Shown here piece by piece: positions 51,181-61,930 of a stretch of DNA of 64,000 nt (position 1 is its first letter; every line of letters begins with the position of its first letter). Below the pieces are notes generated by a model. The model did no database searches and had not been told where the DNA came from. It saw nothing but the letters and a program-made list of their open reading frames with translations. The translations under genes and the position numbers were made by a program. The stretch comes from an uncultured Hyphomicrobiales bacterium (GTDB taxonomy: Bacteria; Bacteroidota; Ignavibacteria; Kapaibacteriales; UBA2268). The DNA lies in contig CAZSHX010000004.1 of NCBI GenBank assembly GCA_964606895.1, positions 26,789 through 90,788 on the forward strand. The letters run 5' to 3'.

Positions 51181-53625
51181 TTATATCTTCACAAATTTCC
51201 CAACTTTTTCCCCCACCCTCACAAAATATATTCCAGGAGACAAACCCGAAACATCAATTTTTTCTTTCCATTCCGTTTCAAAAACTTTTAAGCCGAGAGT
51301 AGAAAAGATTTGAATTGTTTTGATATTCTTTAAAGTATGTAAATAAAGATGATCGACAGCGGGATTAGGACTTAACTGTGATGAAAAATCAGATTGTCGG
51401 ATATCTTCATTCACATCAGTGATTATATCTAATTTTGCTACAAATACATCACCATCGACATACTCGTGATTAGGTTTACCGATAGGCTCATAAGCATTTG
51501 GAGTTGTGGGAAAATCTGTAGAATTTGTTGCGCCAGCTATTATTATTGAACCGGCATCATCTATATCAATTAATGAACCTTCCTCCCATGCGATTCCTCC
51601 AAGATATGTTGAAAATAACAATTTCGATAAATCAGGATTCATTTTGCTGATGAAAGCATCCCCGAATGCACCAATATCTAAATTTGTTCCGTTGTTTTGG
51701 GTTTGGATAGCATCTTTTGTCAAAGGAAAATCGTCTGTCCATGTATTACCGATTAAAAAAACATTGTTTAAACTGTCGAGTATCATATCGTGACAATCCG
51801 AATCCCATCTCCCGCCTAATAAAGTAGAACTTATTAAAGCAGAGCAATCTTTATTAAATTTAGATATGAAAAGCATCCCGTCCCCGAAATATTTTCTTTG
51901 ATATGCATTTGGTGTAGTCGGAAAATCTTCCTGTGGTGTAGTTCCGGCTATGTATGGATTCCCTTCAGTATCTAGTTTTATTTTATTGATTGACATGCCT
52001 CTTTTAGGATTGCCAAAATATGTTGAAAATAATAATTTTTCGCAATTAGAATCAAATTTACTTATGAATCCTGAAACGGGAAAATCGTTATTTGTGTTGA
52101 TTTTTTTTTGATAGGCATTAGTTGAAATTTGGAAATCTTTGGATTCTGTTGCACCTGTGATATATATATTCTTATCCTTATCAATTATCATACTTTTTGG
52201 TGAATCCCAACCGGAACCTCCAAAAAATGAAGAAAATACAATTCCTGATAAATCAGGTTTAAACTTTGTGATGAATGCATCTGTCTGTCCGGATATTTTC
52301 TTTTGATATGCTCTGGAAGTTATCGGAAAATCAACAATATTCGAATCTGCCGGTTTAATATATCCTAAGACATAAGAATATCCTTCGTCATCAATAAAAG
52401 AATCATATAATTCATATGTGCCGGGACTATTTAAATTTGTATCACAGCCGAATAAGGTTGAATTAATAATTTTTGTTCCTGAACTATCGAATTGAGTTAT
52501 GAATATATTGTTATTACCATGAGGAATTCCTTTGAGTTTTTTTTGATAAGCATTTAATGTTGTAGGAAAGTCGTCTGCAGCTAAGTCGTAACTAATAGCT
52601 GTACCAATAACATTGATTTTGTTATTATGTATAATTATTTTATATGGATGCGTACCCAGATTTGATGAATCTCCGCCAAAATAACTTGAATAAATTAACT
52701 TTGAACCATCAGCTGAAAGAACTGAAAAGAAACCTGTTCCATTATTTTTTTTCATCGCATTTTCAGTAATTGGATAATCTTTTGAGTTAGTATATCCAGT
52801 AATAAATATATTCCCTGCTTTATCATGTGTAATAGAATTAGGGTGGTCATCTCTATAGCCATGTATATAAGTTGAAAAAACTAATGGGTCAATAATTAAA
52901 TCGTATGTTTTATCGTATTGATTTGCATCAAAACTTAAAAGGTCGTTGTTAAATTGGATTTTTGCAGGAATATCTTTCTTTTGATTTTGTATTAACTGGT
53001 ATGAGAATAAGTCCTTATGCTCAATTGTTCCTAATATTGTCGATATAAGCACTTTCCCATTATTCAACCAAATCGAGTCTGCACCCTCAAAATTTATTTT
53101 TATTTCAGAAATATTAGCTCCCGGATGAACAATAAAATCATATCTGAATTGATTTTGCTGGAAATACAGCCGCATATCAATTCCATCATATAGATTATCA
53201 ATGAGAACTTCTTTGAAGTGTGAAACATTTGTTGCCCATTTTAATTTATCACTGCCAATAAAATAATTATAGTATGAAGAAAGTTTATTGACTCCTGAAA
53301 TATTTTTTCTTTCCAAATTAAAATTTGAATTTGCAAACTGCATCTTTATGACTTGACTCAGAACCTCTCTTTCCTGATTGTTTATCCCTTTATCTTTAAT
53401 ATCATAATCAATTTTATTTCGAGTGAAACATTTTGGATCAGGATTACACTCATTTTGATAATAATCGAAAACAATATCTCTATCAGTTACCCATATATTG
53501 CAGCCAGGAAGATTAGCAAAGAATTTTACTTCCGAATTCCACTGACCTTTGTTTTCAACGAAAAAACTCTCTTTTGCAAAAGCAAAATTGGATAAAATTA
53601 AAACCACTAATAATATTTTTCTCAT
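51181..53625 (-). CDS. SBBP beta-propeller repeat protein with a T9SS C-terminal sorting domain
   Basis: 814 aa. Signal peptide. Repeats (F/Y)S(S/T)(Y/F)(F/L)GG...D......D..GN(I/V)(Y/F)(I/L)(T/A)G.T.S.DFP.T. C-terminal LSPNPAVDHLYLHTL...GIYFVRVGEKVGKFVKI. Confidence 0.7.
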   Translation of the reverse strand: MRKILLVVLILSNFAFAKESFFVENKGQWNSEVKFFANLPGCNIWVTDRDIVFDYYQNECNPDPKCFTRNKIDYDIKDKGINNQEREVLSQVIKMQFANSNFNLERKNISGVNKLSSYYNYFIGSDKLKWATNVSHFKEVLIDNLYDGIDMRLYFQQNQFRYDFIVHPGANISEIKINFEGADSIWLNNGKVLISTILGTIEHKDLFSYQLIQNQKKDIPAKIQFNNDLLSFDANQYDKTYDLIIDPLVFSTYIHGYRDDHPNSITHDKAGNIFITGYTNSKDYPITENAMKKNNGTGFFSVLSADGSKLIYSSYFGGDSSNLGTHPYKIIIHNNKINVIGTAISYDLAADDFPTTLNAYQKKLKGIPHGNNNIFITQFDSSGTKIINSTLFGCDTNLNSPGTYELYDSFIDDEGYSYVLGYIKPADSNIVDFPITSRAYQKKISGQTDAFITKFKPDLSGIVFSSFFGGSGWDSPKSMIIDKDKNIYITGATESKDFQISTNAYQKKINTNNDFPVSGFISKFDSNCEKLLFSTYFGNPKRGMSINKIKLDTEGNPYIAGTTPQEDFPTTPNAYQRKYFGDGMLFISKFNKDCSALISSTLLGGRWDSDCHDMILDSLNNVFLIGNTWTDDFPLTKDAIQTQNNGTNLDIGAFGDAFISKMNPDLSKLLFSTYLGGIAWEEGSLIDIDDAGSIIIAGATNSTDFPTTPNAYEPIGKPNHEYVDGDVFVAKLDIITDVNEDIRQSDFSSQLSPNPAVDHLYLHTLKNIKTIQIFSTLGLKVFETEWKEKIDVSGLSPGIYFVRVGEKVGKFVKI

Positions 53626-53634
53626 AATTAATCT

Positions 53635-55161
53635 CTATATTTTAATGAATTTACTTACTTGATTACCTACCCACACAAAATATACCCCCGACGGCAAATC
53701 CGAAACGTCAATTCTTTGTCCTCCGCTGGCGGAGGTGTCTGCGGAGCAGACGGAGGTGGACTCTTCCTGCCCAAACACATTGTAAATCCTAAGAACTGGA
53801 TTCCTCACTTCGTGCGGAATGACGGTTAGGTTGAATGATATTACAATAAAATCTTCTGCAGGGTTCGGTTGAATGGAAAAATTATCCAAGGCCTTAATTT
53901 CTTGTTGCTCATTTATCCCATCGGGTTTCTCGATTTCTATGGCACCAATGGAACGTGATGTAATTGAAAATTGATTGCCGTAAAAATCGGTGGTTGGCTC
54001 TGTCTCGGTCATGCCCTTTCCTAAAGCAGGACTGCCCACAACGAGATGAAAGTCATTGCCCGAACCATCAGCGAAGATTTGCGTTCCTGAGCCATAAATC
54101 ATTGGATTTTGGTCCTTTATGGCATCCAAATCCGGAGTATCCCAATATGGTCCTTTAAATGACGGATTCGTTATGCCATAATAAATATTTTTCCCGAAGC
54201 TTGCCGCCCCCGCCGGCTGTATTCCTCCATTAATATAAGCTGAAGAACCAAAAGCAAATATATTATTTTCAATTCTGTTTCCTGATAATGACGGGTACAG
54301 ACTGCTCGTGGTAAGAAAACGCATGGTTGCCTGTCCGCAATTGTAAAAAGTATTGTTAATCACTTTGCAATCAACAGCCGAAGACAGAGCTAATCCCCGA
54401 TAGCCGCCAATGATTATGTTAGAATAAAATTTAAGATTTTTGACTTCAAATTTATCTTCGGGGCAGTAGAACTCTGCACCGGTGTCGCCACCAAGTTCAA
54501 ACGCAACCCATGGGTCTTTCGAGGCGTTAATGAAAATATTTCGTTCCATGGTAATATTGGATGCACCGCCCTTGATATGCCCCCCGGTCAGGCAATTTTC
54601 AAATCGGTTAAGGCGTATAATCCCATTCCGGCAAACATTATAATCCATAGTTGAAAGTCCCGACATATCTTTGAAAATGCAATTCGTCACTTCGAAGCTG
54701 TCCACACCGCCAAATTTAAAAGCGGCTATTGCTTTCGGGTCAGTCGCATTTGAAAAGACGCAACTGTCCACCTTGATAAATTTTGACTGAGTTTCACAGC
54801 TACCGCTATTGTCAACGCTGAAGAGCCTTCCCGGATATTTGGCATTACCTTTGAAATTCAGATTAAGGAACTTAATATACTCACAACTCATAAACTGCCA
54901 GCAACCTGAAATATCTATTTCATCATTTTCAAACCGGCTGATAACTATCGGGTTGGATTTATTGCCCTTTAATTTGGATATACCCTGATAGCCGCCGTAA
55001 GAACCAGCATGCAGAAAAACCGTATCGCCCGGATGAATTGCCACGGCATTCACAGCGGCTTCAATATTCGGATACGTCTGCCCGGGACCAAGGTGGACAT
55101 TGCCCAAGCAAGACATTGAAAATAAAAAGATAGACAACAATGCTATAAATAAAGCTTTCAT
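53635..55161 (-). CDS. Right-handed parallel beta-helix (pectate-lyase-fold) protein with a T9SS C-terminal sorting domain
   Basis: 508 aa. Signal peptide. Repeated NxxF(x)N/G-rich coil motifs (INNTFYNCGQ, IENNIFAFGS). C-terminal IQPNPAEDFIVISFN...GVYFVWVGNQVSKFIKI. Confidence 0.6.
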   Translation of the reverse strand: MKALFIALLSIFLFSMSCLGNVHLGPGQTYPNIEAAVNAVAIHPGDTVFLHAGSYGGYQGISKLKGNKSNPIVISRFENDEIDISGCWQFMSCEYIKFLNLNFKGNAKYPGRLFSVDNSGSCETQSKFIKVDSCVFSNATDPKAIAAFKFGGVDSFEVTNCIFKDMSGLSTMDYNVCRNGIIRLNRFENCLTGGHIKGGASNITMERNIFINASKDPWVAFELGGDTGAEFYCPEDKFEVKNLKFYSNIIIGGYRGLALSSAVDCKVINNTFYNCGQATMRFLTTSSLYPSLSGNRIENNIFAFGSSAYINGGIQPAGAASFGKNIYYGITNPSFKGPYWDTPDLDAIKDQNPMIYGSGTQIFADGSGNDFHLVVGSPALGKGMTETEPTTDFYGNQFSITSRSIGAIEIEKPDGINEQQEIKALDNFSIQPNPAEDFIVISFNLTVIPHEVRNPVLRIYNVFGQEESTSVCSADTSASGGQRIDVSDLPSGVYFVWVGNQVSKFIKI

Positions 55162-55529: not shown

Positions 55530-55988
55530 ATGAAATTACTAACCGGAATTATTGCCCTCATTTTCGCATTAAGTATGAACTTAAAAGCGGAAAGCGACAC
55601 TTTGCTCATTAACATGAAAGACGGCAAAGTAGAAAAATTCGCAATTACTCAAATTCAAAAAATCAAATTTGAGAATATAACCAAAGTTGAAGACCAAATC
55701 CTGAAACCGCAAAACCTTTCCGTAACAGGGAATTTCCCTAATCCTTTCACAGATAAAACTGAAATCGAGTTTGAGACGAAAGACTTCGGAAGTGTTGAAA
55801 TCGTAATTTTCGATAACTCAGGTAAACAAATTCAAAATCTTGAATGCCTGAATTGTACAGCCGGCAAAAATACTCTGATTTGGAACTGTTTGGATAAAAA
55901 TAATAATCGCGTACAGAATGGAACTTATTTCTACGAAGTACGATTCGGTAAAGAAGTGCTTTTACGGAAAATGATTTTAGTAAAATAA
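55530..55988 (+). CDS. Small secreted protein: one copy of a roughly 28-aa N-terminal repeat plus a T9SS C-terminal sorting domain
   Basis: 152 aa. Signal peptide. DTLLINMKDGKVEKFAITQIQKIKFEN. Then GNFPNPFTDKTEIEFETKD...GTYFYEVRFGKEVLLRKMILVK. Confidence 0.6.
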   Translation: MKLLTGIIALIFALSMNLKAESDTLLINMKDGKVEKFAITQIQKIKFENITKVEDQILKPQNLSVTGNFPNPFTDKTEIEFETKDFGSVEIVIFDNSGKQIQNLECLNCTAGKNTLIWNCLDKNNNRVQNGTYFYEVRFGKEVLLRKMILVK

Positions 55989-56048
55989 ATGCTATAAATC
56001 ATTTGAATGATTAATTTTATATAATTCAAATAAATAAAGGAAAATAAC

Positions 56049-58910
56049 ATGAAAAAATATTTACTCTTTTTAGTGGTTTTAGTGCTGTCGGTTCCCCTTT
56101 TTGCTCAACAGCCTAAGGTTAATTTATTTCTGAACGACGGAACAACCAAACAGCTAAATCTCTCGGACATTGAAGATTTGAAATTCATTATTGGAAGCAG
56201 TGCCTGCTTTATTAAAATATTCTATGAAGATTCTCTAATAGAAAATTACCAAACAAAGAATATCGAGAAAATGAAATTTGAAACTGATGCAAACAAATTT
56301 CAGGTACTGAATATTTACATTGATGGTTCGGCAAATAGTTTCAAATTAGCTGACCTCGACAGCATTAATTTCTTCATCGCTGAAACTCCCGTACCTCAAA
56401 TTGCGAGTATAAATCCTACTTCCGGAAAAATCGGGATTGAAGTAACATTGGTTGGTAAGAATTTTGGAGAAACACAAGGAACAAGTATTGTTTCTTTCAA
56501 AGGGAAAAATGCAATTGATTACAAAAAATGGAGCGATACACTGATTAAAATCAATGTTCCAGCCGGAGCCACAACCGGAAAAGTTTCCGTTACCGTCAAA
56601 GGAATTAAAAGCAATGAAGTGGATTTCACGATTCCATCGGAATTACTGACTTTAACACCAACTTCAGGCAAAATTGGAGATATAATCACAATCGCCGGGA
56701 CAGCATTTGGTACTGTTCAAGCCGGCAGTTTAATAACATTTAATGATACCAATGCAACAGAATATTCCTCCTGGAGCGATAATCAAATCAAGGTAAAAGT
56801 TCCAAAAGGTGCTATGTCCGGCAATGTTAATTTAATTATTAATGGACAAAAAACCAATGGGCTTAATTTTACTGTTTTGCCAAAATTTGAGAGTATAACT
56901 CCTTCATCAGGAAAAATCGGGGATACTGTCATACTTGCCGGCTCAGGATTCGGAATACTTAAAGATACAAGTTTTGTTTTCTTCACCGGAAAGAAAGCTG
57001 TTGACTATATAAGTAAAACCACTACTGAAATAAAATTAAAAGTTCCGGTTGGAGCTAAAACGGGTGCTGTTTATATATCATCAGGAGGAAATAAAAGCAA
57101 CGAACTGAATTTTAGTATTTTCCCCCAGATTACAAAAATTGCTCCCGATTCAGCCGGTGTTGCCGATGAAGTAACAATCACCGGAACCGGTTTTGGAGAC
57201 AAAGCAGGTGCAAGTTTTGTAACTTTTAACGATATCAAAGCAAATGAAGTTACAAGCTGGAGCGATATCAAGATAGTATTAAAAGTTCCTGCCGGGGCTG
57301 TTTCCGGTACTGTTTGGATTAACATGTCGGATATTAAAAGCAATGAAGTGAAATTTACGGTTATACAACACCTCCTGAGCGTTTCGCCAAATGCTTTAAA
57401 AATCGGAGACCAGATGACAATCACAGGCACAAACTTTGGTGCAAACAGGGAAACAAATACAGTTTTATTCAACAACATAACGGCTATAAATTATGATTCA
57501 TGGACTGATACAGAAATAAAATTGAAAATTCCTGAAAATGTCGTTAGCGGCAAACTCTATGTGTTGATTGGCACAAAGAAAAGTAATCCGGGGGATTATT
57601 CAATTATACCTGAATTTTTTGGTATCAGCCCAACATCCGGAAGATTAGGGAATTTAGTCAATATTACAGGCAAAGGTTTTGGTGATGTTCAGGGTTCGGG
57701 ATATGTTTCCTTTACCGGAGGAAATGCGACCGAGATTCTCAGTTGGTCAAATACAGCTATTAGCCTGAAAGTTCCGGCATCTGCTAAGACCGGTAAAGTT
57801 TCTGTGAACGCAAGCGGACAAAAAAGCAATGAATTGGACTTTTCGATTTTACCAACAGTTTTCAGTATCTTACCTTATGTCGGATTGCCCGGAGATCAGG
57901 TTACTTTAACAGGTGTAAGCTTTGGAGCAAATCGTGATGCAAGTTTTGTGTCATTTAAAAATGCAAATGCCGTTAGCTACACCAGCTGGACAGATACCGA
58001 AATTAAAGTAATTCTGCCTGTGGGTGCTGAAACCGGAAAAGTTTCAGTAACTGTTGGGACAGAAAAAAGCAACGAAGTTGATTTCTATTTGACACCGGTT
58101 ATATCCGGAATTTCGCCTAACAGCGGGAAAATTGGAGATCAGGTAACAATTTCAGGTAGTAACTTTGGAGCTACAAGAGGCACAAGTACGATGACTTTCA
58201 ATACTGCAAGTGTAACTACTTTTAATAGTTGGAGCAATACCTCAATTACGGTTGTTGTTCCGGTTGGGACGAGGACCGGGAAAGTTTCAGTTGTTGTGAA
58301 TAATATAAAAAGCAATGAAGTTGATTTCACTGATACAGACATCTTTTATGAAACTGTTACCATAGGCACTCAGGAGTGGATGCTTAAAAATCTTGATTCG
58401 GCAAGATACCGCAATGGTGATGCTATCCCGCAAGTTACCGATGCAACTGAGTGGGCAAATTTAACAACCGGTGCATGGTGCTATTATAACAATAGTTCAG
58501 CTAACAATGAGCCTTACGGCAAACTGTATAATTGGTATGCCGTTAATGATTCCCGCGGTATTGGTCCATCTGGGTTTCACATCCCTACGGATACTGAGTT
58601 GCAGACATTAATTGATTACCTGGGCGGTGGTACAATTGCCGGTGGAAAAATGAAAGAATCCGGAACAAGTCATTGGGCAAATCCAAATACCGGTGCTACA
58701 AATGAAAGCGGGTTTACTGCGGTTGGAGGTGGTTATCGTATAGGAACAGGTGCATTTCAGCAATTCAACAATGCAGGTTCTTACTGGTCACGAACAGAAG
58801 CCGACACATACAATGGTTATCACAGAGTGATGTATTATAATAATGCGACTATAGCAAGATATGCCAATGGAAAAGTTATCGGTTTTTCAGTTCGTTTAAT
58901 AAAAGATTAA
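56049..58910 (+). CDS. Large secreted protein: three N-terminal short repeats, eight tandem IPT/TIG-like 81-aa repeats, and a C-terminal FISUMP domain
   Basis: 953 aa. Signal peptide. The repeat P.I.SI.P.SGKIGD.VTI.G..FG...G.S.V.F........SWSD..I.V.VP.GA.TG.V.V...G.KSNE.DF occurs eight times. C-terminal TIGTQEWMLKNLD...AWCYYNNSSANNEPYGKLYNWYAV...GFHIPTDTELQTLIDYLGG...AGGKMKESGTSHW...ESGFTAVGGGYRIG matches the TIGR02145-type pattern. Confidence 0.7.
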   Translation: MKKYLLFLVVLVLSVPLFAQQPKVNLFLNDGTTKQLNLSDIEDLKFIIGSSACFIKIFYEDSLIENYQTKNIEKMKFETDANKFQVLNIYIDGSANSFKLADLDSINFFIAETPVPQIASINPTSGKIGIEVTLVGKNFGETQGTSIVSFKGKNAIDYKKWSDTLIKINVPAGATTGKVSVTVKGIKSNEVDFTIPSELLTLTPTSGKIGDIITIAGTAFGTVQAGSLITFNDTNATEYSSWSDNQIKVKVPKGAMSGNVNLIINGQKTNGLNFTVLPKFESITPSSGKIGDTVILAGSGFGILKDTSFVFFTGKKAVDYISKTTTEIKLKVPVGAKTGAVYISSGGNKSNELNFSIFPQITKIAPDSAGVADEVTITGTGFGDKAGASFVTFNDIKANEVTSWSDIKIVLKVPAGAVSGTVWINMSDIKSNEVKFTVIQHLLSVSPNALKIGDQMTITGTNFGANRETNTVLFNNITAINYDSWTDTEIKLKIPENVVSGKLYVLIGTKKSNPGDYSIIPEFFGISPTSGRLGNLVNITGKGFGDVQGSGYVSFTGGNATEILSWSNTAISLKVPASAKTGKVSVNASGQKSNELDFSILPTVFSILPYVGLPGDQVTLTGVSFGANRDASFVSFKNANAVSYTSWTDTEIKVILPVGAETGKVSVTVGTEKSNEVDFYLTPVISGISPNSGKIGDQVTISGSNFGATRGTSTMTFNTASVTTFNSWSNTSITVVVPVGTRTGKVSVVVNNIKSNEVDFTDTDIFYETVTIGTQEWMLKNLDSARYRNGDAIPQVTDATEWANLTTGAWCYYNNSSANNEPYGKLYNWYAVNDSRGIGPSGFHIPTDTELQTLIDYLGGGTIAGGKMKESGTSHWANPNTGATNESGFTAVGGGYRIGTGAFQQFNNAGSYWSRTEADTYNGYHRVMYYNNATIARYANGKVIGFSVRLIKD
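56388..58331 (+). repeat. Array of eight 243-bp (81-codon) in-frame tandem repeats encoding IPT/TIG-like domains
   Basis: Repeat boundaries recur at ...NEVDFTI / PSELLTLTPTSGKIGD..., ...NFTV / LPKFESITPSSGKIGD... and so on. The copies are diverged at the nucleotide level. Confidence 0.7.
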
Positions 58911-58936
58911 TCAGGATTTTAAGAAAATCAAGGGGT

Positions 58937-58966
58937 TTGTCATCCCTGCGTTCGCTGGGATGACAA
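58937..58966 (+). terminator. Hairpin terminator after the 56049..58910 gene
   Basis: ttgtcatccc-tgcgttcgct-gggatgacaa forms a 10-bp perfect stem, with a T-rich stretch (ttatataaatttgcttttttt) downstream. Confidence 0.5.
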
Positions 58967-59044
58967 TTATATAAATTTGCTTTTTTTAAAAGCCGATTAT
59001 TAATGATGTAACTTTGGAATAATGTTTTTTTAATTAAAATTAAC

Positions 59045-60463
59045 ATGACAATAAAAAAGAAAATTCTTTTATCAATATTTCTACTTTTTTTCTTTGTTAT
59101 GGAGGATAATTCCTCTGTCCTCTTTGGTGCTTATCCGCCCGAAGTGGAAGAAAGAATTAAACAGGTAGAAGCTAATTTATCTAACGGCCTTCGTGATACA
59201 TTAAAATGGTCTTTGGATAAGCGGATGTATTATTACAATATGCAAGGGCTGAGCATTGCTGTTGTTCACAATTATGAAATTGAATGGGCAAAAGGTTATG
59301 GTTGGGCAGACAAAGCAGATAAACGTCCTGTAACTCCCGAAACTCTTTTTCAGGCGGCATCTGTGAGCAAGTCATTAAATGCTGTCGGGGTTATGAAATT
59401 AGTTCAGGAAAATCAGTTGGACCTGTATTCTGATATCAATAATTTTCTGACTTTATGGAAATTTCCCTACGATTCATTGGCAAAGAACAAGAAGATTTCG
59501 ATTGCAAATCTATTGAGTCATACTGCAGGACTGGGGATTCATGGTTTTGTCGGGTATAAATTACAGGATACTTTACCAACTATTCCCCAAATTCTTGATG
59601 GAAAGAAACCTGCTAATACTCCACCGGTAAGATCCGAGTTCGAACCCGGCATCAAATATCAGTATTCCGGGGGTGGCGTGATGATTTCCCAGCAGATTGT
59701 CATGGAAACTACAAAGCTTCCTTATGAACAATATATGCAAGAGAATGTACTCAACCCAATGGGTATGACAAGTAGTTTTTACAATCAACCGCCGCCATCA
59801 GATAGACTTAAATCCCTGGCAACTGCATATTATCAGAGCACTCCGCTTGAGGGGAACTATGTTATATATCCTGAGCAAGCCGCCGCAGGTTTATGGACTA
59901 CCCCAACTGATTTGTGCAAATTTATTATTGAAATTCAATTGTCGTTGCAAGGTAAATCAAATAAGGTATTGTCAAAGGAAACTGCACAGAAGATGCTAAC
60001 TCCATATATTGATAAGGTTGCGGCTCTTGGAGTTTTTATTGATAACAACGGAATTGCAAAATATTTTATGCATTCCGGAGCTAACGATGGATTCAGGTCG
60101 CTCTATTATGGAAGTCTTGAAGACGGTAACGGAGTGGCAATGATGGTAAATTCATACAATAGCAACATAATGTATGAACTTCTTAATAGTGTTCTTAATG
60201 TTTATCAATGGAAAGGTTACTACAAACCAACCGAGATTACAGAATTTCCAATTGAAAAAGTTAATCCGATTGTGCCGAATCCTGCAACTGATTTCATAGA
60301 ATTAATTGAGGATATTGGTAACGGGCGAATTGAGATTTTCAATTCAATCGGTGTGCGAATTATGAATTTCGACAAAACAAACAAAATAGATGTTAGTATG
60401 CTTTCTGATGGGCTGTATTTTCTTCGGGCAGGAGACAAAGTTTATAGTTTCATCAAAAAATGA
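59045..60463 (+). CDS. Beta-lactamase/transpeptidase-fold serine hydrolase (class C / PBP-like) with a T9SS C-terminal sorting domain
   Basis: Signal peptide. The catalytic SxxK is present in FQAASVSKSLNAVGVMKLV, with YSGGG nearby. C-terminal IVPNPATDFIELIED...GLYFLRAGDKVYSFIKK. Confidence 0.65.
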   Translation: MTIKKKILLSIFLLFFFVMEDNSSVLFGAYPPEVEERIKQVEANLSNGLRDTLKWSLDKRMYYYNMQGLSIAVVHNYEIEWAKGYGWADKADKRPVTPETLFQAASVSKSLNAVGVMKLVQENQLDLYSDINNFLTLWKFPYDSLAKNKKISIANLLSHTAGLGIHGFVGYKLQDTLPTIPQILDGKKPANTPPVRSEFEPGIKYQYSGGGVMISQQIVMETTKLPYEQYMQENVLNPMGMTSSFYNQPPPSDRLKSLATAYYQSTPLEGNYVIYPEQAAAGLWTTPTDLCKFIIEIQLSLQGKSNKVLSKETAQKMLTPYIDKVAALGVFIDNNGIAKYFMHSGANDGFRSLYYGSLEDGNGVAMMVNSYNSNIMYELLNSVLNVYQWKGYYKPTEITEFPIEKVNPIVPNPATDFIELIEDIGNGRIEIFNSIGVRIMNFDKTNKIDVSMLSDGLYFLRAGDKVYSFIKK

Positions 60464-60508
60464 TGCTGAGTTTTAAAAGAATATTTTTAAAATAAATATG
60501 GATAAATA

Positions 60509-61402
60509 ATGAAAAAATTGATACTTCTAATAGGGATTTTCTTGTGTGTGAATGTGCTCTATTCTGCAAATCCGTTAATTAAATTCTACCTAAAAGATGC
60601 TACTTTCAAATCCTATGATATAGATAATATTAATGTGATGAGTTTAGTTAAAATTCAAAACAATTCAACCATGAAAATCTATTATCAAAAATCTCAATCC
60701 GTGTCTTATGCTTCAAAAGACATCGACTCGATAAGATTTGAAAAAACCGACAATCTGATTGTTTACATTAATGGTGTTCAACCTACTAAGTATGAATTAG
60801 CTGAAATTGACAGCATTCTTTTTCTGCCTTCATCAGCTAATGAATCTGTCGTAATTGGGGGACAGGTGTGGATGCTGAAAAATCTGGATGTATCGGAATA
60901 CCGCAATGGAGACCCAATCCCGGAATGCACCGACTCTGCAACATGGATGACTCTAAAGACAGGTGCATGGTGCTATTACAACAATGATCCCGCAAATAAT
61001 ACAGTTTATGGAAAGCTTTACAACTGGTATGCAATAAATGATCCAAGAGGCATAGCCCCTGTTGGCTGGCGTGTGGGAAACGATTCCGACTGGACAGTAT
61101 TAACAGATTTTGTTAAAGGTGAAATTAACGGCGGAGGTAAGTTGAAAGAAGCCGGTACGAGTCATTGGTCGGCTCCGAACACGAGTGCAACTAACGAAAG
61201 CGGTTTTACGGCACTTCCCGGAGGCTACCGTATTGGTAATGGTTTTGGCAGAATAAAGGATGCCGCAGCATTTTGGATGGCTACCGAAGTGGATAATGAT
61301 AATGCATGGTCAAGATACTTGTTCTCATTTAAAGCCAGTATTTCGAAAAATCCGAATTACAAAGGAACAGGTTTTTCGGTAAGGTGTATCAAGGATGAAT
61401 AG
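60509..61402 (+). CDS. Secreted FISUMP-domain protein with three N-terminal short repeats
   Basis: 297 aa. Signal peptide. Repeats LIKFYLKDATFKSYDIDNINVMSLVKI / MKIYYQKSQSVSYASKDIDSIRFE / LIVYINGVQPTKYELAEIDSILFL. Then VIGGQVWMLKNLD...AWCYYNNDPANNTVYGKLYNWYAIND...VGWRV..DSDW..L...GGKLKEAGTSHW...ESGFTALPGGYRIG. Confidence 0.7.
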   Translation: MKKLILLIGIFLCVNVLYSANPLIKFYLKDATFKSYDIDNINVMSLVKIQNNSTMKIYYQKSQSVSYASKDIDSIRFEKTDNLIVYINGVQPTKYELAEIDSILFLPSSANESVVIGGQVWMLKNLDVSEYRNGDPIPECTDSATWMTLKTGAWCYYNNDPANNTVYGKLYNWYAINDPRGIAPVGWRVGNDSDWTVLTDFVKGEINGGGKLKEAGTSHWSAPNTSATNESGFTALPGGYRIGNGFGRIKDAAAFWMATEVDNDNAWSRYLFSFKASISKNPNYKGTGFSVRCIKDE

Positions 61403-61446
61403 ATTACTCCCCGAAGCAAAATATTGTAATAGTTATATAAAACAAA

Positions 61447-61478
61447 AAAGCAGGTTTGAAACTTGCTTTTTTTTTATT
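61447..61478 (+). terminator. Rho-independent terminator after the FISUMP gene
   Basis: aagcagg-tttgaaa-cttgctt (one G.U pair) followed by T9. Confidence 0.55.
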
Positions 61479-61576: not shown

Positions 61577-61930
61577 TCAATAATTTAGCTGGTACCCATA
61601 GTTGATTTCAAATATGTTGGAAGGTAAACTTTTGCGATCTTCAATTTGGGCAATTATTCTGAATTTTATAGGGATGCCGTTCCTGTGCCCTGTGTACAGA
61701 TAGCTGGGACGCGAAACTCTGTCCAGCTCCAGCCAATTTAAGGAGTTGCTGGCTTGAATTTCGATAACGTATTCGGTTTCATACGGATTCCCGTTACGGT
61801 TCCAGGATAGCCTGATTTCACCGCCGATTAGGATTTCTCCGAATAATTGAACCGGTATTCTCGGTATAAAGTCGGGCAGTGTCCTGCTTGGGAAAATGCC
61901 CTGCATCGTATTCATCATTGTCGCTACCAT
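61577..61930 (-). CDS. Hypothetical small protein (possible Ig/FN3-like fold)
   Basis: 117 aa. GEIRLSWNRNGNPYETEYVIEIQASNSLNWLELD. No recognisable catalytic motifs. Confidence 0.35.
   Translation of the reverse strand: MVATMMNTMQGIFPSRTLPDFIPRIPVQLFGEILIGGEIRLSWNRNGNPYETEYVIEIQASNSLNWLELDRVSRPSYLYTGHRNGIPIKFRIIAQIEDRKSLPSNIFEINYGYQLNY

Follow-up and report, generated by a model that had tools for sequence, protein, structure and literature searches.

A CTD-tagged mini-protein gene paired with genes for CTD-less proteins of a new repeat module family: a candidate T9SS sorting or anchoring adaptor acting in trans

The window, by which we mean the whole stretch of 64,000 nucleotides that was analysed, contains three ORFs, here called A, B, and C (Table 1), for which the original prediction had described a short repeat directly after the signal peptide, with three units each in B and C and a single unit in A. 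The three ORFs are present as claimed, and the repeat peptides lie where they had been placed. The CTD of A matches both PF18962 (Por_Secre_tail, residues 69-149, 32.6 bits with a cut-off of 27) and TIGR04183 (32.8 bits with a cut-off of 23), and A combines this above-cut-off CTD with a Sec signal peptide, the two features that mark a type A sorting-domain protein. B and C both terminate within a FISUMP domain (PF09603, 187-position profile, cut-off 33.9; also TIGR02145), which scores 145.2 bits at residues 770-952 of B and 157.6 bits at residues 114-295 of C, and neither protein gave any match to PF18962, TIGR04183, or CHU_C. Read by eye, the signals of B, C, and their homologues look like those of signal peptidase I substrates and have no canonical lipobox. 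The eight IPT/TIG stretches of B (PF01833, 236.9 bits summed) give rise to a 243-nt periodicity in the DNA. A diversity-generating retroelement (DGR) acting on the FISUMP genes was considered and rejected, as the region from 52 to 64 kb contains no template/variable repeat pair and shows only this TIG periodicity.

Table 1. Genes and sequence features of the A-B-hydrolase-C locus; positions are those of the window.
Feature	Position	Strand	Description
Gene A	55530..55988	+	152 aa: signal peptide, single unit, linker, T9SS type A CTD
Unit of A	55596..55676	+	aa 23-49, DTLLINMKDGKVEKFAITQIQKIKFEN
Linker of A	55680..55727	+	aa 51-66; variable, predicted disordered
CTD of A (T9SS type A sorting)	55728..55985	+	aa 67-152
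Gene B	56049..58910	+	953 aa: signal peptide, three-unit module, eight IPT/TIG, FISUMP; CTD absent
Three-unit module of B	56106..56384	+	aa 20-112; units 23-48, 55-78, 87-110
Hydrolase gene between B and C	59045..60463	+	beta-lactamase-fold, own CTD, unit absent
Gene C	60509..61402	+	297 aa: signal peptide, three-unit module, FISUMP; CTD absent
Three-unit module of C	60566..60844	+	aa 20-112; units 23-49, 55-78, 83-106
Terminator-like hairpin 3' of C	61444..61472	+	consensus scan only

The stop codon of A and the start codon of B are separated by 60 nt, and this intergenic region holds five in-frame stop codons and, by consensus scan, no terminator-like site. Scanned in the same way from the start of A to the end of C, the plus strand yielded a single strong terminator-like site, the hairpin 3' of C, an arrangement that would fit a single transcription unit made up of A, B, the hydrolase gene, and C. 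The beta-lactamase-fold hydrolase within the cluster is an ordinary T9SS cargo, and the arrangement with a hydrolase gene in the cluster recurs on independent contigs.

N-terminally, B and C share 29.5% identity over 88 aa (E = 3e-13). The similarity of the units, which are about 30 aa long and which had been proposed for scoring against shuffled sequences, proved significant by two approaches that both exceeded their shuffled controls. With leave-one-out HMMs, every unit scored above at least 999 of 1000 of its own shuffles, the unit of A reaching 16.0 bits where its best shuffle had 10.3, and all remaining ORFs of the 64-kb window scored 4 bits or less for the unit. We also compared by hhalign the family profiles built from 19 module homologues (one profile per unit, U1, U2, and U3) and from 26 A homologues (UA). 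The module units align to one another in register (U1-U2 P = 3e-6, U1-U3 P = 2e-7, U2-U3 P = 4e-8), and the unit of A aligns in register to all three (UA-U2 P = 9e-7, UA-U1 P = 1e-4, UA-U3 P = 6e-3), with each of the six profile comparisons scoring above 120 of 120 column-shuffled controls (z from 3.9 to 13.1). Judged by these comparisons, the A unit and the module units are homologous.

The unit had been put forward as not belonging to a described domain, and indeed it is not covered by any entry of Pfam, NCBIfam, or the PDB. Isolated modules (residues 20-112) retrieved nothing from Pfam-A at E <= 10, the precomputed hits of module-bearing homologues in a newer Pfam release consisted of PF09603 only, and searching the PDB by sequence and by fold yielded nothing, a pilin-like fold included. 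The best NCBIfam match was to NF047433 (Lepto_7_Nterm, the N-terminal domain of LA_0442/LA_0875), which resembles the unit in consisting of about 30 residues directly after a signal peptide and to whose positions 32-62 the A unit aligns. However, this match was found for A only and its 22.1 bits fall below the curated cut-off of 43; E <= 0.01 was reached in 6 of the 26 A-family members, the B and C modules gave zero matches, and Leptospira is without a T9SS. Other candidates were tried and set aside. PF26707 (DUF8237) is found in module-less homologues and comes after PF09603 in the listed domain order, and PF26696 is likewise found in homologues without the module. Dockerin type I (PF00404) had zero matches in the module; dockerins are present in other FISUMP homologues, in the same N-terminal slot that the module takes here. 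We conclude that the three-unit module, and with it the unit, is a new repeat domain family.

The unit is beta-rich, in agreement with its description as beta-hairpin-like, and structure prediction of the C module alone, as had been suggested, yielded an AlphaFold model of moderate confidence with nine strands, three per unit (pLDDT 80.5, pTM 0.67). Modelled by itself, A shows a hydrophobic helix at residues 2-16, a hairpin with strands 24-28 and 34-38 within the unit, whose third strand is unformed, a linker with pLDDT below 50 at residues 52-60 and 65-72, and a beta-sandwich CTD with pLDDT of about 90. The 26 A orthologues are about 152 aa long and 47-63% identical, and TIGR04183 matches 25 of them. 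Across this family, the majority residue has a frequency of 0.76 in the unit, 0.77 in the CTD, and 0.43 in the linker; that is, the unit is conserved about as well as the CTD, although by itself it is predicted as an incomplete hairpin, tethered by a disordered stretch.

Database searching with an HMM, which had also been proposed, was run as an exhaustive HMMER search, beside searches with full-length queries. The family proved small, with 173 representatives among 1.84 billion. Two hits of the exhaustive search with 8 and 6 internal matches (P0249 and P0282) are helical TPR/CHAT-type repeat proteins and were dismissed as false positives. In keeping with the extent of the B module, residues 20-112 of P0151 align to profile positions 1-93, and about 15 full-length orthologues of C share its module.

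Gene order was surveyed for 33 A-family genes (loci L007-L038) in about 19 species-level Ignavibacteria and Kapabacteria genomes, every one of them a MAG. A module gene follows A on the same strand within 200 nt for 26 of the 33 genes, this number being the 25 of the systematic count plus L034 with a gap of 9 nt. The commonest gap is 12 nt, two pairs overlap by 4 nt, and the genes otherwise flanking the pairs vary from locus to locus. At three divergent loci, weak module matches occupy the same position downstream of A, and at L016, L019, and L020 two or three module genes lie behind a single A gene. The adjacency is not universal: the orthologous loci L009 and L012 each have an orphan A gene, and at least two module genes, in addition to C in the window, have no directly adjoining A. 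As such, A would have to act in trans, or one A would have to serve several partners.

The proteins that carry the module are diverse. Among the 72 larger representatives, TIG domains occur in 46, FISUMP in 41, FGE-sulfatase in 14, LamG and LRR in 2 each, and NlpC/P60 in 1. The module is not confined to FISUMP proteins but also stands in front of FGE-sulfatase, LamG, LRR, and beta-propeller ones, and what sets the partner of A is, to judge by these domain architectures, the module and not the cargo domain. The original prediction had linked the CTD-less FISUMP proteins to the T9SS mini-protein, and this link is made stronger by the adjacency across about 19 genomes and by the fused forms described below, but its other half needs amending, as the partner appears to be the module and not FISUMP.

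A CTD is missing from all 36 partner ORFs of the cassettes and is present in only 4 of the 72 larger module representatives. In all five CTD-bearing module proteins, an A-like unit stands immediately N-terminal to the CTD, by HMM match in P0283, P0288, P0229, and P0221 and by eye only in P0294. A sixth protein, P0156, has an A-like unit C-terminal to FISUMP and a C-terminus without a CTD match. We considered whether a C-terminal extension might be incompatible with FISUMP, and this is not an absolute rule, since P0221 has the order FISUMP, unit, CTD. Neither of the two fused genes checked has a separate A gene beside it, and one fused gene shares its MAG with several split cassettes; A-unit and module genes exist both split and fused. 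The unit is absent from all 68 large module-less CTD proteins and from all three ordinary CTD cargo proteins of the window.

Drawing on the synteny, the fusions, and the CTD-less partners, we propose that A may be a trans-acting T9SS sorting or anchoring adaptor for CTD-less module proteins, a reading to which we give somewhat less than an even chance. The passenger of A would be essentially one beta unit of ~30 aa, joined by a flexible linker to a type A CTD, and B, C, and their relatives would be Sec-exported binding proteins without a CTD whose three homologous units form a compact nine-strand domain. The A unit would bind the module directly, most likely as a fourth unit whose strands join those of the module (a 3+1 geometry), and the resulting heterodimer would use the CTD of A for T9SS passage and/or surface retention, with the partner held by its N-terminus and the TIG stalk and C-terminal lectin-type binding domain facing outward. 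The two proteins may be exported together, as opposed to being tethered after export. The T9SS passes folded proteins via a very large barrel (PMC9251779), and FISUMP/DUF1566-type proteins are in many cases held at the surface by an N-terminal lipid anchor, with the C-terminal binding face exposed (PMC5758913). Since a fused protein has its CTD in place, the unit must have some further function besides tagging, which tethering or domain completion fits better than pure piggyback export. Tethering of the module proteins to a T9SS-displayed partner is the leading explanation. A more specific version, which we regard as possible but doubtful, is that the cassette represents a first case of T9SS export in trans, in which the unit of the mini-protein would complete the partner's domain in the periplasm, and the folded heterodimer would cross the SprA/Sov translocon on the mini-protein's CTD and, after CTD processing, be retained at the surface by its N-terminus. 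The literature that we searched contains no description of T9SS co-export, and searches on T9SS piggyback or hitchhiker export, FISUMP, and LA_0442/LA_0875 gave nothing relevant to the cassette.

In the canonical T9SS, PorU removes the CTD, and the cargo is released or joined to anionic LPS. A resembles canonical type A cargo (PF18962/TIGR04183) in its Sec signal peptide and bona fide type A CTD, and genes close by in the window code for ordinary cargo that also ends in this tail. Canonical cargo, however, has its CTD and its functional passenger on one polypeptide, whereas the passenger of A is only about 45 residues long and the functional parts are other polypeptides, which have A's repeat and no CTD. 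The Flavobacterium johnsoniae SprB/SprF system, in which cargo with a type B CTD adjoins a cognate PorP/SprF-like gene and which comes in many paralogous pairs per genome, would be comparable in that export of a T9SS cargo depends on a dedicated, neighbour-encoded partner; there the SprF-like partner is an outer-membrane beta-barrel and the cargo owns the CTD, whereas here a soluble mini-protein partner bears it. In cohesin-dockerin pairing in the cellulosome, too, a small terminal docking module is found on diverse catalytic and binding proteins and a separate protein does the anchoring, but our module has neither a sequence nor a fold relationship to that pair, and the A and module units are homologous to each other whereas dockerin and cohesin are unrelated. 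Another analogy is the Tat hitchhiker cited in PMC9251779 (Rodrigue et al. 1999), a hydrogenase small subunit that carries a signal-less large subunit. In both cases, one subunit has the signal for a folded-protein transporter and would take along a partner that has none; the two cases differ in membrane, machinery, and signal, and the pairing proposed here would be by homologous beta units. Lastly, the Legionella LdtA-type lipid-anchored FISUMP/DUF1566 proteins with a C-type-lectin fold (PMC5758913) share the exposed C-terminal binding domain and N-terminal attachment, but where they have a lipid anchor, B, C, and their homologues have the three-unit module.

We would like to note four other explanations. 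An unlikely one, though the best of the four, is that A and the module each bind a common third partner independently, such as an outer-membrane protein, anionic LPS, a glycan, or a T9SS subunit like PorV. Homologous repeats frequently share a ligand, the strong conservation of the A unit is expected for contact with conserved machinery, A genes and module genes each occur as orphans, and the weak likeness to an N-terminal domain from Leptospira, a genus without a T9SS, hints at a broader role. A third partner would nevertheless leave unexplained the tight coupling of A and module genes (typically 12 nt), the A-like unit that always precedes the CTD of module proteins, and the absence of a separate A gene beside the fused genes checked, and it would give the module proteins no route across the outer membrane.

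We find it improbable that the unit acts as donor and the module as acceptor in a head-to-tail assembly resembling donor-strand exchange in pili, with A as the anchored base and the fused proteins as chain formers. In its favour are the N-terminal acceptor and C-terminal donor of the fused proteins, the unpaired third strand of A in the monomer model, and the three loci named above, where one A gene heads a series of two or three module genes. Against it, the donor unit is absent from most module proteins, so that chains would end after a single step, fused forms are scarce (about 6 of the 173 representatives), and the fold searches turned up no pilin-like fold. It is more improbable still that A is a periplasmic chaperone or cap, transiently covering the module against misfolding or aggregation or regulating its partner, with a CTD that merely disposes of A. 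Such a role would suit translationally coupled A and module genes and a small protein whose unit is modelled as partly unfolded alone, but in the fused forms the unit stays next to the CTD for good, and the domains of the partners are binding modules of typically extracellular kinds for which no periplasmic role is known. Only the shortness of the unit speaks for a functionless link, i.e., A as a degenerating copy of a module gene's 5' end that by chance became fused to a CTD, and this is scarcely credible given 26 A orthologues at 47-63% identity with a unit conserved like the CTD, synteny kept across about 19 genomes, and unit comparisons scoring above every shuffle.

T9SS substrates are today recognised solely by a CTD in cis, on the same polypeptide. 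If A is indeed an adaptor that escorts or anchors CTD-less proteins, secretome predictions for Ignavibacteria, Kapabacteria, and possibly other groups are incomplete; the T9SS tag would be a detachable, reusable module, and CTD-based prediction would miss a whole class of substrates. The T9SS would then join Tat and peroxisomal import as a transporter that accepts hitchhiking partners, and the 30-aa unit, together with the 90-aa module, would make up a compact, genetically encoded docking pair usable for surface display in Bacteroidota-type hosts. The adaptor reading would also give tiny proteins of the A type a concrete role that is open to testing. At present, such proteins are annotated as "Por secretion tail only" or, wrongly, as "FlgD".

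The original prediction had drawn together three genes of the window, here called A (a mini T9SS protein) and B and C (both FISUMP proteins), by a short repeat unit shared among their products, three copies each in B and C and one in A, and we found the three ORFs and the peptides it quoted exactly where it had placed them. The T9SS type A sorting domain (CTD) of A scored 32.6 bits on PF18962 (cut-off 27) and 32.8 bits on TIGR04183 (cut-off 23), and searches of B and C with these two profiles found no CTD in either, in line with the claim that both lack a T9SS tail. A is a bona fide type A CTD family member, and both B and C are true FISUMP proteins.

Features of the A, B and C cluster and its surroundings, in window coordinates
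Feature	Position (nt)	Strand	Content
Ordinary T9SS cargo gene	51181-53625	-	
Ordinary T9SS cargo gene	53635-55161	-	
A	55530-55988	+	152 aa: signal peptide, one unit (residues 23-49), type A T9SS CTD
Sub-threshold NF047433 match	55584-55676		A residues 19-49
B	56049-58910	+	953 aa: signal peptide, units 23-48, 55-78 and 87-110, eight IPT/TIG, FISUMP
IPT/TIG repeats of B	56567-58327		Eight repeats, 243-nt DNA periodicity
Hydrolase between B and C	59045-60463	+	Serine hydrolase of the beta-lactamase fold, carrying a T9SS CTD
C	60509-61402	+	297 aa: signal peptide, units 23-49, 55-78 and 83-106, FISUMP
Strong terminator-like site	61444-61472	+	
ORF past the cluster	61577-61930	-	117 aa

The N-terminal regions of B and C are 29.5% identical over 88 residues (E = 3e-13), and each of the seven units outscored at least 999 of 1000 shuffles of itself in a leave-one-out test. 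On a model built from the six units of B and C alone, A's unit reached 16.0 bits against 10.3 for its best shuffle, and all other ORFs in the window scored 4 bits or less on the unit model. Family profiles drawing on 17 further proteins with the B/C-type N-terminal region and on 25 A orthologues were then compared pairwise for units 1, 2 and 3 of the module and the single unit of A. Each of the six comparisons was in register (P 4e-8 to 6e-3), unit 2 being the closest to A's unit (P = 9e-7), and each outdid the full set of 120 column-shuffled controls (z 3.9 to 13.1). This is a genuine repeat, to which the unit of A belongs.

The unit and the three-unit module that follows the signal peptide in B, C and their relatives lie outside every curated family tested. 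The isolated N-terminal regions had no Pfam match even at E <= 10, the precomputed annotations of module-bearing homologues in a newer Pfam release list PF09603 alone, and a profile search of PDB sequences returned nothing (best E 0.087). In NCBIfam, A's unit has one sub-threshold match of 22 bits (cut-off 43), to NF047433, Lepto_7_Nterm, seen in only 6 of 26 A-family members. This family is the N-terminal domain of Leptospira LA_0442/LA_0875, from a genus not known to have a T9SS, and the match could reflect a distant relative or chance. With no above-threshold match in Pfam, NCBIfam or PDB sequences, and with a similarity that is significant against both shuffled sequences and column-shuffled profiles, the unit proved to be neither of the two things named beforehand as fatal to the proposal, a known annotated domain or a non-significant resemblance.

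AlphaFold predicts nine strands, three per unit, for the module of C alone (pLDDT 80.5, pTM 0.67). For A it predicts a hairpin (24-28 and 34-38) whose third strand does not form alone, a disordered linker, with pLDDT <50 over residues 52-60 and 65-72, and a confidently modelled CTD sandwich. Conservation over 26 A orthologues is concentrated in the unit (0.76) and the CTD (0.77), against 0.45 for the signal peptide and 0.43 for the linker. With signal peptide and CTD removed, mature A would be reduced to some 45 residues, a peptide too small for a conventional passenger. Four A orthologues (P0123, P0125, P0129 and P0139) are called 'flagellar hook assembly protein FlgD' by JGI, a systematic misannotation that arises from cross-matching between the CTD and the Ig-like model of FlgD.

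Three A orthologues on long contigs each have a module gene 12-14 nt downstream on the same strand, encoding a 300-aa FISUMP protein, a 1183-aa TIG and FISUMP protein, and a 944-aa Big_7 and LamG protein, respectively; the remaining neighbours differ among these loci. A scan of one genome per species gave 32 loci with full-length A relatives in about 19 MAGs. A module gene lies within 200 nt downstream of 26 of 33 A genes (25 of the 32 counted, plus L034 with a gap of 9 nt), most commonly at 12 nt and with a 4-nt overlap in two pairs. The exceptions comprise one locus with the partner 1.3 kb off beyond a two-gene insertion, one with the partner immediately upstream, three divergent loci with a weak module match downstream, and two orthologous loci with an orphan A gene. 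Several genomes hold three to five such cassettes, in some of which, the window's included, a single A gene precedes two or three module genes, and no CTD was found in any of the 36 partner ORFs. In the reverse direction, an A gene stood upstream of one of three independently chosen module genes, the other two being in a MAG with an orphan A gene.

Small genes of a mobile or selfish kind break up some cassettes: at L003 9655-10844, toxin genes of the YoeB and PemK types stand, together with small flanking ORFs, between two module genes, and at L017 6461-7703 an insertion of two genes lies between A and its partner. The MAG CAYXFU01 (L009, L024, L087, L090), in which orphan A and orphan module genes both occur, carries A-family, module-FISUMP and Por_Secre_tail cargo genes. 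Because this content is typical of Ignavibacteria and Kapabacteria, its label 'uncultured Hyphomicrobiales' is probably wrong.

The two parts are also found joined in single proteins. All five module-bearing representatives with a CTD have an A-like unit directly before it: P0283 (unit 580-612, i-Evalue 9e-11 on the A-unit model), P0229 (2e-7), P0221 (2e-6, in the order module, FISUMP, unit, CTD), P0288 (1e-3) and P0294, recognised by eye only. In P0156 an A-like unit lies past the FISUMP domain, and its C-terminus has no CTD match. These fusions contain no signal peptide internally and arrange their domains in the reverse of the gene order, which rules out read-through artefacts. No separate A gene lies beside either of the two fused genes looked up, and one fused gene shares an Ignavibacteria MAG with several split cassettes. 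The unit was absent from all 68 large CTD proteins without a module and from the window's three ordinary CTD cargo proteins, and it is not a general pre-CTD element. Split and fused forms are classic evidence of two parts working together, and with the conserved adjacency they substantially strengthen the link first proposed between FISUMP proteins and a T9SS mini-protein. The repeats of P0283, P0288 and P0229 resemble by eye the SBBP beta-propeller repeats of an 814-aa window neighbour, with no Pfam SBBP match.

An exhaustive HMMER search with the module profile, over 1.84 billion representative proteins, gave only 173 matches at E <= 1e-3 and 107 at E <= 1e-10, nearly all at residues 20-112, straight after the signal peptide, in proteins of about 280-1500 aa; two of the 173 are false positives, helical repeat proteins. 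Named sources of module and A proteins are Ignavibacteria and Candidatus Kapabacteria MAGs, and the window's own DNA derives from metagenome assemblies. The size class around 300 aa is module plus FISUMP almost throughout, whereas the 72 larger representatives carry TIG (46), FISUMP (41), FGE-sulfatase (14), LamG (2), LRR (2) or NlpC/P60 (1) domains, with a T9SS CTD in only four. Given this variety, the module is a portable N-terminal element of extracellular binding proteins and no FISUMP accessory. FISUMP and FGE-sulfatase are C-type-lectin-fold binding domains with a C-terminal binding face, elsewhere in bacteria often found in N-terminally lipid-anchored surface proteins (PMC5758913). In FISUMP homologues from other organisms (P0008, P0023, P0053, P0054) a dockerin, PF00404, stands where the module stands, which suggests that the N-terminal slot of FISUMP proteins generally serves docking. 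A more distant, differently organised relative, the metagenomic P0295 (1033 aa), has four units xxVWIxNxxxYxAxVxxIDSI(S/T)F as two pairs, then three FISUMP-like repeats.

It is very probable that A and the module proteins share a pathway. The most economical reading, which we hold tentatively and at a little under even odds, is of A as an adaptor. Its unit would pair with the three-unit module, probably adding a fourth unit to it, and binding proteins that lack a CTD would in this way be linked to the CTD of A. The T9SS moves folded proteins (PMC9251779), and a periplasmic complex may be co-exported through it; instead or in addition, surface-attached A may serve as a tether for the partner. 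In both cases the partner's attachment point would be its N-terminus, with TIG stalk and lectin-type domain outward. The fused forms show that tagging is not the unit's only role, which favours domain completion or tethering. Binding of A's unit and the module to a shared third partner is rather unlikely, head-to-tail assembly more doubtful, and a role for A as periplasmic cap or chaperone improbable. A complete lack of functional link is scarcely credible.

In function the cassette comes closest to Tat hitchhiker export, to cohesin-dockerin anchoring and to the cognate partner genes that accompany type B CTD cargo, but it is a member of none of the three. No trans-acting CTD adaptor was described in the literature searched. 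As a variant of T9SS cargo organisation, the system is internally consistent, taxonomically narrow and undescribed, and the cassette is worth experimental follow-up.

The order A, B, hydrolase, C recurs on the independent metagenome contigs L001 and L002, and a Kapaibacterium MAG (L023) is arranged similarly, with A and a 959-aa module gene followed, after a gap, by a 302-aa module gene. A consensus scan for plus-strand terminator-like sites gave none between A and B; the only strong one lies after C, a pattern weakly consistent with a single transcript. The region around A is an island of secreted proteins. The two cargo genes just upstream are divergent from A, one encoding DUF7948, SBBP beta-propeller and CTD, the other a right-handed beta-helix and CTD. 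Within B's TIG region a 60-nt segment occurs in six copies, 63-72% identical. The 117-aa ORF just past the cluster lacks both a Pfam match and an obvious signal peptide, and its sequence resembles part of an Fn3-like beta domain. The predicted signal-peptidase sites of A, B and homologues often expose Gln (LFA|QQP, xxA|QSD), in agreement with the Bacteroidetes 'Q-rule' (PMC5837995).
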